A stretch of 46,178 bases of DNA from Candidatus Micrarchaeota archaeon (GTDB lineage Archaea > Micrarchaeota > Micrarchaeia > Anstonellales > Bilamarchaeaceae), in contig JBDRIM010000005.1 of the NCBI GenBank assembly GCA_043816005.1, positions 1 through 46,178 on the forward strand. Direction: 5' to 3'. The position numbers were made by a program. Position 1 is the stretch's first letter, and every line of letters starts with the position of its first letter. Below are positions 1 to 12,000 of the stretch, one piece after another.

Positions 1-3000
1 GAGAACTTCCATATCCACCCACATCGGATTGTGTTGTTCACAATGATACTGCTTTTGTAGCAAAATCATGTGCAATGCTCCCGGAAGCGTGTAAAGTAAA
101 ACGACTTGTTCCACCACAAAACCAGGATGCTACACAATCACTAAAATGTCCACTTTCTTGTAAAATAATTCCTCCATTAAAATCTGATTGTAGATCTGAC
201 CCAAGCAATGACGATCTTGATGATGGAGATGGTTGTCTTGATTCAAGTTATGATTGCAGAATGGCAAAGTCTAATGCTATGGATTGGAGACCAACAAAAG
301 AAAATGTAGATGGGGATGTTGCTCTGAAATGTTTGATGGCAGCAGGGTGTACTGCAAGCATGACTGCTACACAATCATGTGTATATGTAGTGCCACCAAC
401 AGGACTGTGTAGAGATTTGTGTGGTGGTTGCCCTTCAGAATGCAGAATAACTGGGGCAGAAGTACAACTCCCACCTAGTTGTATTGCTAATGTATTTGCA
501 TGTCTTTCATGTCCAGAAGGATGCAGAGTGTCAGGTGCTGATTTACTTGATAAGAAAGTCGAAGCTACTGCTGCAGGAAAATGCCTAGCGCCAGGTAGTG
601 GGTGTGAAGCAAACAGATTGATCATATCAAATTCTCCACCTCTTCCATATAATTATAATCATGGTTCTTGCGATTACGATGTTTGTCCAGTTGAGTATAG
701 AATACCAGTACCAAGAAGTGCATGTGAAATGTGTATAGCTGCTGAGGAACAGTATACATACCAACCACCAATCAATCCACGTTGTCCAGATCTTTGCAAA
801 CCATCAGATAGAGCACCAGCTGCAGATCCATCTTCATTGACAAAAATAGGACCAGATGGATTAGTTGGAAAACCCATGATACAAGATGTTTCTAAGTATA
901 TGATACCGGTTTACTTGCTTCCGTTATTCAATATAGTTGCAACATTTATCTTCATAAAAAGCCTTTCGCAATTCCTTGGTGGGGACATAGAGATCCCAGG
1001 AATATCTAAGGTGTTTTGATATGAAAAAATTATTACTTTTGTTGTTGTTTGTACCGCTTGTGTTTGCAGGATGGGAAGCAACAGCTGCACTAGCAATAAT
1101 TACAGCAGCAACAATACTTGCAGTATTATATATGATAGGGTTTGGATTTGATATTACCGAATTGAAAATAATGGCTAAAGAAGAATTATTCCAGCTTATT
1201 GCCCTTATGGTAATGATGGTAGTTTTTTATGGTTCAACTAATGTTTTGAATGATAGTTTAATTGATGCAATATCCACCAATGATGCTATGGCACAAAGCA
1301 CGGGCAGCATACAAGATGAAGCAAGTGCAATATTAACAGAATGGAAAGACCAGACAAACACGATCCTAAATAGTATAGTTTCATTAGACAAAAACGCATC
1401 AATAGAATCATCAAAAGCAGACCAATGTAGTTTATTTGGAATGGGTTACAGTGTGAGTGCATGTGGGGGGTTTGCCATGCTTAATCCCCCCCTGAGTATG
1501 GCTGGTGGAATAACAGGATTTGCTCTTGCTGAAGTAAACGGCATGCACCGGTTTATAGAAATTTCGAAAGAATACGCACTTACTATCCTTATGCCAATAG
1601 GAATTCTTCTGAGGACCTTCAAGATAACACGAGGTGCTGGGGGATTTTTTATTGCACTAGCAATATCAATGCATATTATGCTTCCACTTGGTATAATCTT
1701 CAATGAAATGGTTGCCAAAACATTTGATAACACAAACCCACCTGATTACACTGGGATAACAATGGGATCAATAAGTGAATGCTCGCCAGGTGATCCTGGT
1801 TCAAATGAAGGAGCAATAAAAGATGATTATATGGACCTTAGACGGGGGATCCGAGGCCAACTAAGCACGATATTATTAAGATCAACATTGGGTCCGGTAC
1901 TAGGATTATTGATTATGATGGCGTCAATTCGTGGTCTAAGTTCACTCATGGGTGCTGAAGTAGATGTAAGTTCAATATCGAGGTTTACCTGATGGCAGTA
2001 GACTTAATATTGTGTGGTGCAACTTTTGATAGTTTCATGACAGGAACGATATTGCCACTTGTTGGAATTGCTGCCATGACAACATCGCTATTGATAGCAA
2101 TAAGTTTTATGGCTGGAAGAGCTCTTTCAAATCCAAAATTAATATTATGGTCAAAAACAGAAATCATACAATTGGGCATATCTTTGTTTACCATATTCAT
2201 AATAACGGCTTCAGTTACAACATTCTGCAATTTGAATGTTAGAAGCATAGAAGAAGCACTTGGATTGACACCCACTATGGGTGCAACAGTAAATATTTAT
2301 CAAGCAGCATCAGAATATCTGCGAGATGCCACTATATACACACATAACGCAATAGTTGTTTCAAGATATCAACTGGAAGCATATACTGTTCTCTCTTATT
2401 TCAGCGCATTTGAGTGTGATTGGCCAATAGGAAGAGTTGGGATAGGCTGTTGGTTTGGATGGGGAGGAACAAATATGCAGAACTTTGGTGGATATGGGGC
2501 TGCAATGGCAGCTCTAAATACATCATTTAACAGTTTGCTGATCACATATTTTACACTTATAAATCATATTTTCATTCTTCTTTTCATATACAAAGGATTT
2601 GCATTTTTCTTTTTGCCAGTTGGGATTTTGATGCGCTCTCTGCCATATCTAAGGCATTTTGGTGCAGTACTAATAGCGATTTCCATGGCATTTTTGATTG
2701 TTTATCCAGCAATGCTTGCAATTTTCAATATTATGGGAGATGTGTTACTTGATCGGCCACATTTATCTCCAGAAGATAAAGCAACTACTTTCAAAAATGC
2801 AGAAGCTTGGATGGTTGATCTTACGCAAGCAGATTTCTTGGGTATGAGTGCTGCTGGTCCAGGCACAGTTGAAGACAATTATATTGGAGGAGGAAAAGGG
2901 GATATAGGATATGCATTAATGTTTACGGCATATGCTTTCATTGCAGGTGGATTTTTTCCTTCCGTGGCATTATTAGCCACCATTGCAAGCGTATCTTACA

Positions 3001-9000: not shown

Positions 9001-12000
9001 ACCAAATGCTATGTATCTTGAGGATCCTGCAGTCCTACTTGCTTATGAAGGAAGAGGAGTTAGAAGAATTCTGCTTAAGGAACGAGAAAGAGAGGCAGTG
9101 CAATCACAATATGAATACGCAATGGGCTACCTCTATGAGGATATACCAAAAGAGAACATAGCAGATTACATAACAGAAGCAGGTAGTCAGTTGGAGAAAT
9201 TATATCTTTCAGAAGAATACAAGTTCATAAGAACAGAAAAAGGAATTCTTGCCTTTAAAAAACTTGGAAAGCAAGAATCAGAGATAAAAAAAGAAGAGTG
9301 ATTATTTCTTTTTTCTCTTATTATTTGAATGTTTCCTTTTTGATTTAACACTCAAATTCAGTGTCCCCAATTCTTTGGCAAGTAGATAAATTTCAGCTTT
9401 TGATAAATTACTTTCTAGAAGAGGACTTTTTACTTTGGCTTGTTTTGCAGCAAGTAAATGCATGCTTCTCGTGTTCAAATCGTCAAGATGAAAGCCATTA
9501 ATAATGTTCTTTAATTTCATCCGCATTGCAACACTTTTCAGAGTACTGTAAAGCTTAGAAGAACCAAAGCGCGGTGATTTAAGCGAACTTTGTCGATCAA
9601 GAACTATGTGTGTAACTCCTACGATTTTTGCTATTTGTCTAGCTATGTCTATTTCAGAACTTGGATAGTCATCTGTAATGGAGGTTACTGCCACCGCCTT
9701 ATCACCAAGTTCTTCACGACATATACGCATAAGGAATGTACTATCAACACCACCAGAAAATGCAACCAATGCACTGTCTAATTTTCGTATTTTTTGCCTA
9801 AGTACCAGCATCTTTTGTTCAATTGATTTATCCATAAGGATTAGACATGGTGATCAATTTATTAAGATAGCCCAAAAGAAATCAATATGAGATTTTTTCT
9901 GATTTTAATCATTCTACTACCATTTGTTTTTTCATCATGTAGTGGTGAACTATCACATTACATACCGGCAGTTATAGGCGATGGTGGGGGTCTTGTAAAT
10001 GTGACGATGAGAATTGCACCGGGATCTGGAGAAACATATATCACAGTTTCTCCAAGGATTGGGACGTCAACGCAGGAATCTTTACAAAATGCTGCAACTT
10101 ACTGGCAGAGTTTGTCAAATAATGAATGTGATATTTTTGTAAGTTTCCCAGGCAGGAATACAGAATCCATAGATGGACCAAGCGGTGGAGCAACATTTAG
10201 TTTGATGATTTATGCTCTTTTGAGTAACAATACGATAAGAGATGACAGCATAATAACAGGATCAATGGATAAATTTGGAAATGTAGGATCGGTTGGGGGA
10301 CTTTACGAAAAAGCAAAAGGAGTTTCATCTATCGGAGCAACATATTTCATTACTCCTGAAGAAAACTTATATGAAACATTTATGCTGAAAAATGCTGGAG
10401 AAAAATACAATATAACAATACTGCAAGTCAAAAATATGGATGAAATAATCGATTTCATGATCTACGATAAACCTATAGAAAAAACAGAATTAGATTCTAA
10501 GAAAAGACCGATACCAAATCTTACAGAATATGATTACTCGGGAATTGAGAGATTCAAGACAGTAGCAGAAAAAATAATCGATCTTGAAAACCAAACTGTT
10601 TCGAATATGATTACAAATGATAACGAAAGTATGATAGTAAAGGAATTTTTTGAAAATGAAGTTAGTAGGCAAACAATAATTTTAGATAAAGGTTATTTGT
10701 TCACAGGCGCAAATGAAGCATTCGTAAATTATATTGATCTTTCAACAATCAAAGCAATAATCATGGGCGAAATTAATTTACCACGAAAAAAAGAGAACAT
10801 TGAGAGATGTCTGGCTTCAATTTCAAGACCAAACATGACGGATAAAAACTTTGAATGGATTATTGGTGCTGATCTCCGTCAAGGATGGGCATATGATAAG
10901 CTTAGCACAACCAAAATAGATGGACTCTTGAAAGAAGAGGAATATTTCGCATATAATGAGATTATGTATTCCCAGGCATGGTGCGAAGTCGGAACAGGAC
11001 TTATAGGTGCTGCAGAACCTGAGGGTATCGAAATAAACGAAAATGAGTGGAGAGAGATAGCAGAGAAAAAACTAATTCAAGCAAAGAATATTGAAATGAA
11101 TGACGAAGACCTTAAAACAAGATTACGAATAGCAGAGGAAGCATATGGTGATGGAAGGTATGGTGCAGCCATATATGATGCAGTTTTTGTCATTGTAAAT
11201 TCACAAAGTTTACTAGATGAATTGAATATGTCAATAATAAATGAGAGTAGAAGTTCTTTGTGGGGGCAGGTCTATCAATCACACGCAGTCTTTCTTTATT
11301 CACAAAATCAAACAAAAGTTGCTTATATCACTGCAAAATATGCAGAAGAACTGGATGATATTACAGAAGAAATGAGACGTAAATTAGTACCGTTAAATAG
11401 TAGTGATGAAACTCAATCACAGTTATATTATGGGTTAATTGTGCTTGGCTCTGTGTTTTTATTAATTGTTGTAGTTATTATAATCAAAAGGCGATCTTAT
11501 GGAAATAACGGCCCGGGATATAGGAAGACTAATCGAACTAAATAAGAAAAAGGCCGAATTAGAATTTAAAAGAACGATTTATGGTGAAGAGTCATCAGAA
11601 TCAGTGTTGGTTAACAAAAATGCAACTGTGTTAACAGAAAAAACACGTAACGCTGGCATTGAAATTGTTTATCCAAATCAACGAAAATTAGATGCACTGG
11701 CAAAGGTTCTCAGTGGTTTTACTAAGGACGAAATAAGAGAGGCAATAAAAACAAAAAAAGGTAAAGCATACGAAATCCTAAAGGAAAGAGGCATAATAGT
11801 AAAAAGGAATTACGAAAATAGATTTGAGATAGCAAAATTGTTTATGATAGCAGCAAAGATGAAAGATGATGAGAAAAGAGCATTTCTTGATGTGTTGGCA
11901 GCTGGTTGTTTGGCCAAAGCACTCAAAATTGAATCATTAGATGAAAATACCAAGAAAAAACTCACAAGAATAATGAAACGGTGTGGTATTGGACTTGCAG

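Follow-up and report, generated by a model that had tools for sequence, protein, structure and literature searches.

TrwI/VirB6 of plasmid R388 (7o3v, 8rt9) forms the pentameric base of the stalk of a type IV secretion system (T4SS), and DotA (9ngy) is part of the Legionella Dot/Icm protochannel. Chromosomal, 'domesticated' archaeal derivatives of T4SSs, like the system proposed here, are found in the DNA importers Ced (Sulfolobales) and Ted (Thermoproteales), in which, as described in PMC9905601, the gene for a polytopic VirB6-like protein (CedA/TedA) also lies beside that of a membrane-anchored VirB4-type ATPase (CedB/TedB), with CedA1/TedC as the pilin. In the Rickettsiales vir homolog (rvh) T4SS, according to PMC7648143 (see also PMC2653234), four or five virB6 paralogs stand in tandem behind virB3-virB4; this resembles the present array in being an old set of VirB6-type paralogs within one operon of a reduced-genome, host-dependent organism, in which certain paralogs carry very large extensions and are exposed at the surface. 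The Patescibacteria (CPR) possess a chromosomal T4SS whose genes are reported to be indispensable to one cultured strain for growing as an epibiont, and which shares with the system proposed here its conservation, its VirB4-centred make-up, its occurrence in ultrasmall episymbionts and an adaptor, TrsD, related to the VirB4 N-terminus (PMC12102498). We consider it rather probable that the gene block analysed here encodes the VirB6-like membrane ring or core of an undescribed chromosomal T4SS/Ced-like machine for cell-to-cell transfer; literature searches retrieved no paper describing its six-paralog array.

The source organism is a DPANN symbiont, the Micrarchaeota being tiny and host-dependent, and the stretch of DNA analysed (the window; 46,178 nucleotides of contig C5) begins within a Micrarchaeota locus of twelve genes, built around six anciently duplicated five-helix membrane proteins, the paralogs p1 to p6. 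The first 141 bases of the window match the last 141 of contig C40 exactly, with consistent reading frames, and C40 and C5 are therefore one locus. C40:37612-45345 contributes genes for a PadR regulator, a ~1,300-aa membrane protein, p1, p2 and the N-terminal part of p3. The contig break had been placed inside p3, as is borne out by the overlap and by two open ORFs, the 3'-open C40:44082-45344 (421 aa) and the 5'-open C5:3-1019 (338 aa), which have 47 residues in common and so together give a protein of ~712 aa; among p3 orthologs the median length is 706 aa and the median number of Cys is 37. The PadR gene (Pfam E 5.9e-12) and the large ORF beside it occupy the strand opposite to that of p1-p6, the giant gene, DZR and g58. 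This large ORF spans 1,337 aa; its Atlas record begins at residue 51 and hence predicts ~1,287 aa, in line with the ~1,290 aa originally assigned. ORF positions on the plus strand of the window agree with those of the initial annotation, and the genes of the block are separated by gaps of at most 10 bases or overlap by one base. The features are as follows.

1..141, plus strand: stretch identical to the end of C40, an exact overlap that joins the window to C40:37612-45345
3..1019, plus strand: p3, C-terminal 338 aa, 5'-open (ORF, family HMM, C40 overlap)
1021..1992, plus strand: p4, 323 aa, a signal-peptide-like N-terminus followed by a 5-TM core (p4 clade, 42 of 42)
1992..3056, plus strand: p5, 354 aa, 5 TM (ORF, AF2 model, fold searches)
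3067..4131, plus strand: p6, 354 aa, 5 TM (ORF, family HMM, position clade)
4131..8381, plus strand: giant Cys-rich surface protein, 1,416 aa, 53 Cys (ORF, orthologs)
6618..7790, plus strand: clan-GH-A-like (beta/alpha)8 barrel, giant protein residues ~830-1220 (AF2 model, fold searches)
8388..8702, plus strand: double zinc ribbon (DZR) protein, 104 aa, 12 Cys, cytoplasmic (Pfam DZR E 3.6e-10)
8708..9301, plus strand: g58, 197 aa, soluble (ORF, no family)
9302..9835, minus strand: PP-loop (QueC-like) protein, syntenic neighbour
9887..11545, plus strand: membrane protein G60, 552 aa, Lon_C proteolytic domain, syntenic neighbour
11499-12302: conserved ~267-aa ORF after G60

Gene order is identical across 48 related loci (titled Micrarchaeota, Micrarchaeia, Bilamarchaeum/Bilamarchaeaceae, Ca. 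ainarchaeum or (uncultured) archaeon), which upholds the fixed order first reported for Micrarchaeota, and 42 of the 48 contain exactly six complete paralogs. In these, the proteins of p3, p4, p5 and p6 each form one clade in 42 of 42 loci, and those of p1 and p2 in 41 of 42, the sole exception being locus L010, whose p1 and p2 labels were exchanged owing to an ORF start that reached too far upstream. The view that the six are old, position-specific paralogs is upheld. The deep branches that join arrays of different families are poorly resolved in the tree. The DZR gene follows the giant gene in most loci that reach that far. The best conserved gene of the block is g58 (mean column identity of 65% in alignment A7), for which PDB profile matches to acetyltransferases at E ~1 are a weak hint of a GNAT-like fold. 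The QueC-like PP-loop gene is probably not part of the machine.

An HMM built from the genome matches 23 ORFs, initially counted as 23 genes; as p3 is included twice, they represent 22. The family is indeed the largest paralog cluster of the genome, with 18 members by BLAST single linkage compared with 11 for the next. Nine of the 23 ORFs lie on C37 and C38, short contigs of higher GC that had been tentatively attributed to a related strain. These copies are only 30-49% identical to those of C22 and C5, too diverged for a related strain, and probably come from a second organism in the bin. Singletons and array members constitute one family (hhalign probability 98.3%, E 1.4e-14, 287 columns).

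Five hydrophobic segments in the paralogs, together with K/R-rich short loops 1 and 3, invariant Cys in loop 2 and a Cys-rich insert within loop 4, indicate an N-out/C-in topology with a large outer loop, which is also that reported for VirB6 (PMC6120205). Each of p1-p6 has a disulfide-bearing outer loop and a conserved arginine-rich cytoplasmic TM3-TM4 loop, and a conserved acidic C-terminal tail is present in every position except p2. In p5, C79, C142 and C153 of the outer loop are invariant, as are G202, P209, R215, P218, R221 and G224 of the TM3-TM4 loop, and the tail reads YGDEIDLSRIVQMV. The part of p3 in the window consists of a Cys-rich extracellular insert with 27 Cys, a final TM helix at residues 300-318 and a cytoplasmic tail (LGGDIEIPGISKVF). 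Family conservation peaks in the TM3-TM4 cytoplasmic loop; in the account of PMC7648143 the Rickettsiales VirB6 paralogs, which adjoin VirB3/VirB4, are likewise most strongly conserved there and in the central TM helices.

Of 48,161 chains compared with the AF2 model of p5 (pLDDT 86.7, pTM 0.82), the top-scoring one was TrwI/VirB6 7o3v_F, at a Z of 8.7 (246 of 261 residues, rmsd 7.3 A) that is below the level which the tool calls safe for helical bundles, followed by DotA 9ngy (Z 8.0, 267 residues). These top two full-length matches, all oligomeric membrane channel parts, have a sequence identity of 8-11%, and the fold likeness is, as the initial annotation had it, weak yet top-ranked. An additional match, to the Aeropyrum CedA1 pilus 8dfu_B, involves the N-terminal hairpin of p5 (Z 6.6, 84/84). 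Foldseek placed 8rt9_F at probability 0.75 and E 0.37, with zero matches of the p5 model at E<=0.001; an Atlas structure search ranked TrbL at row 4 (TM 0.45), and a neighbouring Atlas cluster has Pfam CedA1 on 23% of its members. Sequence comparison provided no counterpart. Pfam and NCBIfam searches of p3-p6 and the singleton gave no match, in accordance with the novelty claimed for the family; Pfam TrbL found nothing in the whole genome at E<=10, and p5 and singleton profiles retrieved no T4SS chain from PDB at E<=10. A profile-profile link to VirB6, previously left open, did not materialize, hhalign against a 39-sequence Agrobacterium-type VirB6 alignment yielding probabilities of 0.7% for the family (A5) and 0.5% for the singletons (A4). 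The array also differs from VirB6 in that a hetero-oligomer of six different chains is proposed, as opposed to a homo-pentamer with VirB5.

The locus had been reported to lack a VirB4-like ATPase. This is true of the present genome and its order, where neither array has an adjoining ATPase gene, but such linkage exists elsewhere. Downstream of the singleton (C61:42154-43239), on the same strand, lie genes for a 260-aa two-TM protein, which matches NCBIfam CedB positions 9-175 (E 0.002), and for an ATPase of 1,014 aa that carries an intein together with Pfam DUF87 and AAA_10. Intein matches apart, this ATPase scores best among curated families with CedB (E 6.6e-22) and with the VirB4-like CD1110 family (4.2e-20). 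The singleton is operonic with a split CedB/VirB4-like ATPase; the trio recurs in 13 of 20 relatives' loci and the adaptor gene alone in one more. A further ATPase of this genome is encoded on C17. Its ortholog has a six-paralog array ~2 kb upstream, on the same strand, in 8 of the 10 genomes from other Micrarchaeota families (f7, f8 and f9). Three annotated cases show the order six paralogs, two adaptor paralogs, ATPase, zinc-ribbon/TM-hairpin protein, coiled-coil protein and ~800-aa membrane protein; coordinates alone are the basis of the other five. Among 61 sampled genomes, in a tally that takes in the unpublished genome G029, family profile and C17 ATPase co-occur in 57 and are both absent from the other four.

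The likeness to Ced resides in CedB as best curated match of the ATPases, the resemblance of the adaptor to the CedB N-terminal part and the fit of the p5 hairpin to the CedA1 pilin. Against this, CedB is split here into adaptor and ATPase, and the ATPase scores of ~74-78 bits are far below the curated CedB cut-off of 700; six fixed paralogs and a singleton take the place of one CedA. Pilin, relaxase and coupling protein were not found, the small protein of the ATPase module being a zinc ribbon with a TM hairpin, giant Cys-rich surface proteins are attached, and the organism is a DPANN symbiont. In comparison with PDB sequences the best E-values of the ATPase are to HerA proteins (1.3e-10, short stretches), with VirB4 4ag5 at E 9.9e-6 over ~275 residues; given these matches and scores far below curated cut-offs, the ATPase could be a HerA-like pump with another job. 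The rvh system differs in being that of bacterial diderms, with VirB8-11 and VirD4, and in paralogs that match Pfam TrbL/VirB6, which the array paralogs do not; here there are six, and the entire array is duplicated within the order. The CPR system is bacterial and related to monoderm conjugation (MPF-FATA); VirB6 and PrgH homologs are recognisable in it, and its arrays are of VirB2 instead of being six-fold and VirB6-like (PMC12102498).

The giant protein bears an N-terminal signal sequence with a lipobox-like end, A-V-G-C; [GAS]-C comes after a hydrophobic stretch in 33 of 36 giant proteins, the remaining three having over-extended ORF starts, and the Cys residues are conserved in 35 full-length orthologs. 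The model of its barrel (pLDDT 74.2) gave 417 Foldseek matches at E<=1e-3 and, as best VIA match, 6gp5_A (Z 16.5); all 50 rows listed against clan GH-A have Z 13.5-16.5 over 221-268 aligned residues. The (beta/alpha)8 fold is thus common to the barrel and clan GH-A (GH53, GH39, GH1, GH10, GH5), although here it forms part of a disulfide-rich lipoprotein of 1,416 aa. Consistent with the first description of a GH-A-like barrel devoid of a catalytic Glu pair, the ortholog conservation table contains no conserved pair, the ends of strands 4 and 7 have no invariant Glu, and there is no Pfam GH match. A fold that points to glycans raises the alternative that array and giant lipoprotein are a complex for building or maintaining the envelope, which might anchor, export or remodel a glycosylated surface layer and is no longer tied to a pumping ATPase, the link elsewhere being history. 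Arrays and ATPase modules are indeed unlinked in the order (here C40/C5, C22, C17 and C61; on different contigs also in G050 and G059 of the same genus), and PadR, the ~1,300-aa protein, the giant lipoprotein, DZR and g58 were not seen beside ATPase-linked arrays. The missing Glu pair, however, speaks against this reading, as do the duplication of the whole array with all six positions retained in both copies, which suggests a stoichiometric assembly like the ATPase-linked one, and the continued conservation of motifs in the cytoplasmic loop and the tail, which are plausible as docking sites. On balance, we regard it as unlikely.

Complex formation by the six proteins, untouched in the initial annotation, has now passed a first computational check, for the p4-p5 pair. 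The two are predicted to bind with an ipSAE of 0.64 (0.63-0.65 in three runs), the best of three controls scoring 0.00; for solved complexes the ipSAE mark is attained in 116 of 157 cases and for mismatched pairs in 2 of 215, counts that are only rough here as the alignments were purpose-made. At least 89% of contacts agree between runs, and partner pLDDT is at least 70. Contact is predicted through different faces (p5 156-181, 232-252 and 305-340; p4 113-138 and 155-213), as a ring would require, although the score could reflect paralog likeness instead of a true heteromeric contact. The grey-zone fold scores, the lack of a sequence link to VirB6 and the Tweety-family channels among the Foldseek matches (E ~1) would also fit six separate channels, transporters or sensors that share ancestry and an operon but form no ring, the VirB6 likeness being generic to five-helix bundles. 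This is quite improbable in view of the exact number, fixed order, translational coupling and position clades in 42 of 48 loci, the p4-p5 interface that beat its controls, and the operonic link with an ATPase of hexameric type. An integrated conjugative element or plasmid with an ordinary mobile conjugation system, for which VirB4-like ATPases are usually the marker and to which a DDE transposase fragment on C37 might point, is scarcely credible, as synteny with housekeeping genes is conserved in 48 loci, the C17 ATPase is 51-84% identical in 57 of 61 genomes, which fits vertical descent, and neither relaxase nor integrase was seen among the loci examined.

In the transfer machine that we favour, p1-p6 would be VirB6/CedA-like subunits placed side by side via non-equivalent faces, so as to form a single ring in the cytoplasmic membrane that is hetero-oligomeric and probably has six members. 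This ring would serve as the membrane channel or platform of a type-IV-secretion/Ced-like apparatus that is chromosomal and inherited vertically. As its motor we propose a hexameric VirB4/CedB-type ATPase of the FtsK-HerA superfamily, encoded apart from the array on C17, with a second on C61, and accompanied by a two-helix membrane adaptor resembling the CedB N-terminal part; we infer which of these partners the array, as well as the stoichiometry of the ring and the direction of transport. The 350-aa Cys-rich insert of p3, the ~1,300-aa single-pass protein and the giant, disulfide-rich lipoprotein, with its non-catalytic GH-A-like barrel, may make up the surface portion that faces the host cell or glycans, and the substrate might be DNA, as in Ced, or other host-derived macromolecules.

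The bin to which the window belongs comprises 85 contigs (1.26-Mb, completeness 86%, contamination 5.5%). The first position of the window falls within a gene, and seven co-directional ORFs, with one-base overlaps or gaps of at most 10 bases between neighbours, extend across 3-9301. The first 141 bases of the window are identical to the last 141 of another contig, C40, and the 5′-open ORF at the window start and the 3′-open ORF at the end of C40 have 47 residues in common, in frame. C40 and the window therefore form one locus, in which p3, the third of six paralogous five-TM membrane proteins (p1-p6), comprises ∼712 aa, in agreement with an ortholog median of 706 aa (n=42); the initial annotation was thus right to place the contig break inside p3. 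Upstream of the break C40 carries p1 and p2 and, divergent from them, a 1,337-aa ORF and a PadR regulator. The Atlas record of this large membrane protein begins at residue 51, and an Atlas search returned no usable match or model for it. Pfam and NCBIfam scans assigned no family to it, to p3-p6, to the cysteine-rich protein downstream of p6 (termed the giant) or to g58, the last gene of the block, and identified only DZR in the zinc-ribbon protein. With regard to g58 (8708-9301, plus strand), conservation within the block is highest here, with a mean column identity of 65% over 24 sequences; it has no family, and its profile matches GNAT acetyltransferases, at E∼1 only, over residues 100-134.

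An HMM iterated within the genome showed that the membrane-protein family consists of 23 ORFs, representing 22 genes, distributed as follows.

C40 and the window: six genes (p1-p6)
C22: six genes (a second array, a1-a6)
C37: five genes
C38: four genes
C61: one gene (the singleton)

In an all-against-all BLAST the family formed the largest cluster of the genome, with 18 linked members against 11 in the next, consistent with the earlier view that this 23-member family is the largest paralog family present. The earlier statement that its members lack Pfam and NCBIfam matches holds for those scanned, p3-p6 and the C61 singleton; for p3-p6 a single chance row appeared at Pfam E≤1. In public data the family extends to about 3,300 cluster representatives.

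Five hydrophobic segments are common to the family members. The loop between TM3 and TM4 contains the motif L-P-x-G-x-x-L-R-x-x-x-x-x-R-x-x-G, while G-[GAD]-[DE] is conserved in the C-terminal tail, about a dozen residues before the stop, at all positions except p2 and a2. Lys and Arg are abundant in the short loops 1 and 3, loop 2 has Cys residues that are invariant, and a 350-aa insert of p3, whose window-held part contains 27 Cys, sits in loop 4. The hydropathy segments, the basic loops 1 and 3 (read by the positive-inside rule) and the Cys in the outer loops argue for a predicted topology with the N-terminus outside, approximately five TM helices, a large outer loop and a cytoplasmic C-terminus. 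An N-out, C-in arrangement is also described for VirB6 (PMC6120205).

A search with p5 identified 127 relatives, none with a Pfam domain, and all of the named ones were from Micrarchaeota. When one genome was scanned for each species, 48 loci emerged, titled Micrarchaeota, Micrarchaeia, Bilamarchaeum/Bilamarchaeaceae, Ca. ainarchaeum or (uncultured) archaeon. The gene order in these loci is PadR and the large membrane protein on the minus strand, followed by p1 (∼400 aa), p2 (∼335 aa), p3 (∼700 aa), p4 (∼330 aa), p5 (∼355 aa), p6 (∼345 aa), the giant (∼1,300 aa), the zinc-ribbon protein and g58, beyond which three more genes, encoding a PP-loop protein, a Lon_C membrane protein and a ∼267-aa protein, are syntenic. 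Exactly six complete paralogs are present in 42 of the 48 loci; the remaining six are truncated at contig ends or have fewer ORFs. A FastTree analysis of 273 sequences resolved p3, p4, p5 and p6 into clades of 42/42 (support 0.996-1.0), each containing the gene of this genome, and p1 and p2 into clades of 41 plus one mislabelled sequence each, both from a single locus (L010) in which an over-extended ORF start had exchanged the labels. The proposal of a fixed order of position-specific orthologous groups is therefore borne out.

In the same genome a1, a2, a3, a5 and a6 from C22 are sisters of the p1, p2, p3, p5 and p6 clades (support 0.77-0.97), showing that the whole six-gene array was duplicated, with the placement of a4 in the tree not resolved. 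Each of the genomes sampled from the same taxonomic family (9/9) has an a5 ortholog. The singletons formed a clade of their own in a second tree (21 sequences, support 0.995).

The additional copies on C37 and C38 had been considered a related strain's versions of the C22 and C5 arrays. This interpretation fails, as the family copies display only 43-49% (C37 against C22) and 30-36% (C38 against C5) identity, too low for a second strain. C38 carries a copy of the giant as well, and the measured identities of the C37/C38 locus genes span 27-49%. Both are short contigs with a G+C content of 38.5%, against a mean of 36.9%, and a higher G+C content, of about 38.5%, is likewise a feature of the short contigs C19, C37, C38, C39 and C84. 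By phmmer only, a further copy of the large membrane protein was matched on C19 (E 4e-39), and part of a ∼850-aa protein of the ATPase module described below on C84 (E 1e-80). C19, C37, C38 and C84 probably derive from a second Micrarchaeota organism in the bin.

Two ATPase modules are encoded elsewhere in the genome.

C61:38089-41133 (L005:12090-15134), minus strand: 1,014-aa ATPase with a LAGLIDADG-type intein directly after the Walker A motif GSGKS
C17:16690-26000 (L009:6690-16000): adaptor, ATPase, zinc-ribbon/TM-hairpin protein, coiled-coil/wHTH protein and 853-aa two-TM protein

On C61 the singleton is followed by a 260-aa two-helix protein, here termed the adaptor, which aligns with CedB over its N-terminal 170 positions (E 0.002), and then by the ATPase, whose best curated matches, inteins aside, are CedB (6.6e-22), a VirB4-like ATPase of conjugation (4.2e-20) and CedD. 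The ATPase orthologs in the singleton loci of relatives (477-531 aa) have no intein, and one ortholog of the C17 type, of ∼1,050 aa (G006), may also contain an intein. The window itself has a free-standing 216-aa LAGLIDADG_3 ORF (38248-38898, minus strand) between thymidylate kinase and DEAD-box helicase genes. The 526-aa C17 ATPase has CedB as its best curated match (1.1e-20), and the parts of the C17 module are paralogous to those on C61. For both ATPases NCBIfam CedB is the best non-intein match, but the scores of 77.9 and 73.8 bits lie far below the cut-off of 700, and HerA models match too; against PDB sequences the ATPase matched HerA at 1e-10 (local) and VirB4 at 1e-5. An ordinary HerA (DUF87 plus HAS barrel) is encoded separately just downstream of the locus (window 12326-13837, minus strand), and thus the VirB4/CedB-like ATPases are additional to the HerA of this genome. 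The 853-aa membrane protein belongs to no family and has no sequence relative in the PDB. A 1,008-aa protein with 33 Cys is encoded convergently to the C17 module.

The partnership of family members with these ATPases recurs in other genomes. Singleton, adaptor and ATPase occur together in 13 of 20 loci from relatives, one locus retains the adaptor only, and in six, all of which come from the order's other families, the singleton is alone. In 8/10 genomes from three other families the six-gene array ends ∼2 kb upstream of a C17-type ATPase on the same strand. Five of the ten were annotated, three with this adjacency and two without. The three adjacent cases consist of six family genes, two adaptors, the ATPase, a ∼100-aa piece, a zinc-ribbon protein, a coiled-coil protein and a ∼800-aa protein; in the two non-adjacent cases the array, in one instance with adaptors, is located 76-130 kb from the ATPase module. 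The initial annotation had held that the conserved locus contains no VirB4-like ATPase. This remains correct for the array of the window, which has no VirB4-type ATPase alongside, but not for the C61 singleton and most of the other-family arrays compared, whose gene context includes both a VirB3-like adaptor and an ATPase of VirB4 type. In 57 of 61 sampled genomes the family profile and the C17 ATPase co-occur, and neither was detected in the other four, a tally that includes one unpublished genome (G029) and in which related genomes are not independent. In a genome of the same genus (G059) a third ATPase, which shares 52% identity with the C17 type, lies immediately after a third family member (C20:7674-10789); searches of this bin found no such third pair.

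Identity among the C17-type ATPases is 51-84% across the class, in keeping with vertical descent rather than a mobile element, and the mobile-element reading was rejected on this conservation together with the conserved synteny. Most genomes of this order contain 13-17 family matches (8 in two), while elsewhere the number is mostly 6-10. The lower copy number outside the order makes a single ATPase-linked array the likely ancestral arrangement; arrays that are split, duplicated and accompanied by the giant lipoprotein arose later, within this order. In the second tree, genes at position 6 of ATPase-linked arrays cluster with p6 and a6 (support 0.92), the other deep nodes being weak. No candidate for a VirB2-like pilin (CedA1/TedC) was seen in the modules examined, no search of the whole genome having been aimed at one. 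The small protein (130 aa) beside the C17 ATPase was considered for this role and rejected, as it combines a CxxC...CxxC zinc ribbon at the N-terminus with a hairpin at the C-terminus.

Structural comparisons were based on the AlphaFold2 model of p5 (pLDDT 86.7, pTM 0.82, from a 61-sequence alignment). Against 48,161 representative chains the top match was TrwI/VirB6 of R388 (7o3v_F; 246/261 residues, rmsd 7.3), the only one called at a Z of at least 8, although its Z of 8.7 lies below the safe level of the tool for helical proteins. DotA of the Legionella protochannel was second (Z 8.0, 267 residues), and the Aeropyrum CedA1 pilin was the tenth match, to the N-terminal hairpin (Z 6.6, 84/84). 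In Foldseek another VirB6 chain, 8rt9_F, had the highest probability listed, 0.75, at E 0.37, and nothing in the PDB was found at E≤0.001. TrwI/VirB6 as the closest fold, noted previously, was thus recovered; by itself the match of the predicted model lies in the grey zone for helical proteins. The Pfam TrbL profile (PF04610) had no match in the whole genome at E≤10, and PDB profile searches with the p5 and singleton alignments returned no T4SS chain at E≤10. Profile-profile comparison with VirB6, which had been left open, was negative: hhalign probabilities were below 1% for both the family (0.7%) and the singletons (0.5%) against 39 sequences comprising Ti-plasmid VirB6 and natural relatives (Agrobacterium-type only, 37-85% identity), while singletons against p5, the positive control, gave 98.3%. 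The sole lead to CedA/TedA is an Atlas cluster neighbouring the family, which carries CedA1 on 23% of its members. As every sequence-based test of VirB6 membership that was run on the family (Pfam, PDB profile and hhalign) failed, the VirB6-type label is a functional one only, and the family is not filed under Pfam TrbL/VirB6. In predicted fold and topology, conservation pattern and, above all, its operonic partnership with a VirB4/CedB-like ATPase and adaptor, the family appears to behave like VirB6/CedA.

Complex prediction placed p5 in contact with p4 at an ipSAE of 0.64 (0.63-0.65 in three runs), the best of three controls reaching 0.00. Among solved complexes 116 of 157 attain the mark applied, compared with 2 of 215 mismatched pairs, a rough calibration since own alignments were used. 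Contact agreement between runs was at least 89% and partner pLDDT at least 70. In the predicted interface the C-terminal helices of p5 pack against the central helices of p4, and such use of different faces would be as a head-to-tail ring needs. The score expresses a model's confidence rather than a measurement, and it may reflect mere likeness between paralogs.

The giant (1,416 aa, 4131-8381) contains 53 Cys (ortholog median 49). A lipobox-like G-C closes its signal sequence; this feature is shared by 33 of 36 proteins, and the remaining three have over-extended ORF starts. The model of residues 760-1230 (pLDDT 74.2, 34 sequences) has a predicted (β/α)8 fold, with 417 Foldseek matches at E≤1e-3 and 50 listed VIA matches at Z 13.5-16.5. 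The best of these (Z 16.5, 238 residues, rmsd 4.3) is what we take to be a GH53 galactanase, and the matches that we recognized all presumably belong to clan GH-A families. No invariant Glu was found in 34 aligned barrels, including the ends of strands 4 and 7, where a catalytic pair would be expected; with strands numbered from the predicted model, strand 246-253 terminates with D (65%) or E (15%), and strand 363-370 ends in G-F-N. The earlier description of a GH-A-like barrel lacking a catalytic Glu pair is therefore sustained. Since the expected acid/base and nucleophile positions show no conservation, we interpret the modelled barrel as a binding module or, alternatively, an atypical enzyme. 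An S-layer role for the giant was rejected on its 53 Cys, the Micrarchaeum S-layer protein (∼101 kDa) being described as nearly free of sulfur-containing residues (bioRxiv 10.1101/2021.04.28.441871). Three further cysteine-rich proteins are encoded in the window, and the organism seems to favour disulfide-rich surface proteins in general.

19764-21284, minus strand: esterase-like protein, 27 Cys
34278-35552, minus strand: DUF922 protein, 22 Cys
39560-43267, minus strand: 1,235-aa β-helix protein, 38 Cys

Taken as a functional assignment, it is reasonably probable that a family member works like the VirB6-type channel subunit of a domesticated T4SS/Ced-like machine. A bolder proposal, which we regard as doubtful, is that such a machine is a near-universal core trait of Micrarchaeota, in which six different VirB6-like subunits would form a pseudo-sixfold channel ring, matched one-to-one with a hexameric VirB4/CedB-like motor, and ring and giant disulfide-rich lipoproteins would constitute a symbiont-side docking and import platform for host DNA, nucleotides or other macromolecules. 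This ring platform could correspond to an as yet unassigned 21-nm barrel-shaped complex of Micrarchaeota ARM-1, which is located by cryo-ET below the S-layer at the entry of the host nanotubes (bioRxiv 10.1101/2024.05.20.594898). As analogues, three systems come closest: Ced and Ted in Crenarchaeota (PMC9905601), tandem VirB6 paralogs adjoining virB3-virB4 in Rickettsiales (PMC7648143) and the essential chromosomal T4SS of CPR episymbionts (PMC12102498); a related theme in another DPANN lineage is represented by the nanohaloarchaeal giant proteins with a VirB4/TraG domain (PMC10266531). Literature searches found no paper joining Micrarchaeota with VirB6 or DPANN with CedB, and those pairing either group with T4SS, VirB4 or conjugation returned only nanohaloarchaeal SPEARE and Patescibacteria papers. 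No publication on this system was found; bioRxiv supplements were outside the search, and the ARM-1 proteome table may list these proteins.

DPANN archaea lack most biosynthesis, and how they obtain host material is an open question. We know of no genes assigned to the conduits and docking complex seen by cryo-ET. The locus and the ATPase modules offer a concrete, conserved and testable gene set with which the question of DPANN-host uptake can be approached. If the proposal is true, this would be, to our knowledge, the first T4SS-like channel of six fixed, different VirB6-like chains; the Ced/Ted-type domestication of conjugation machinery would extend to a symbiotic archaeal lineage, paralleling the T4SS that is essential in bacterial CPR episymbionts.
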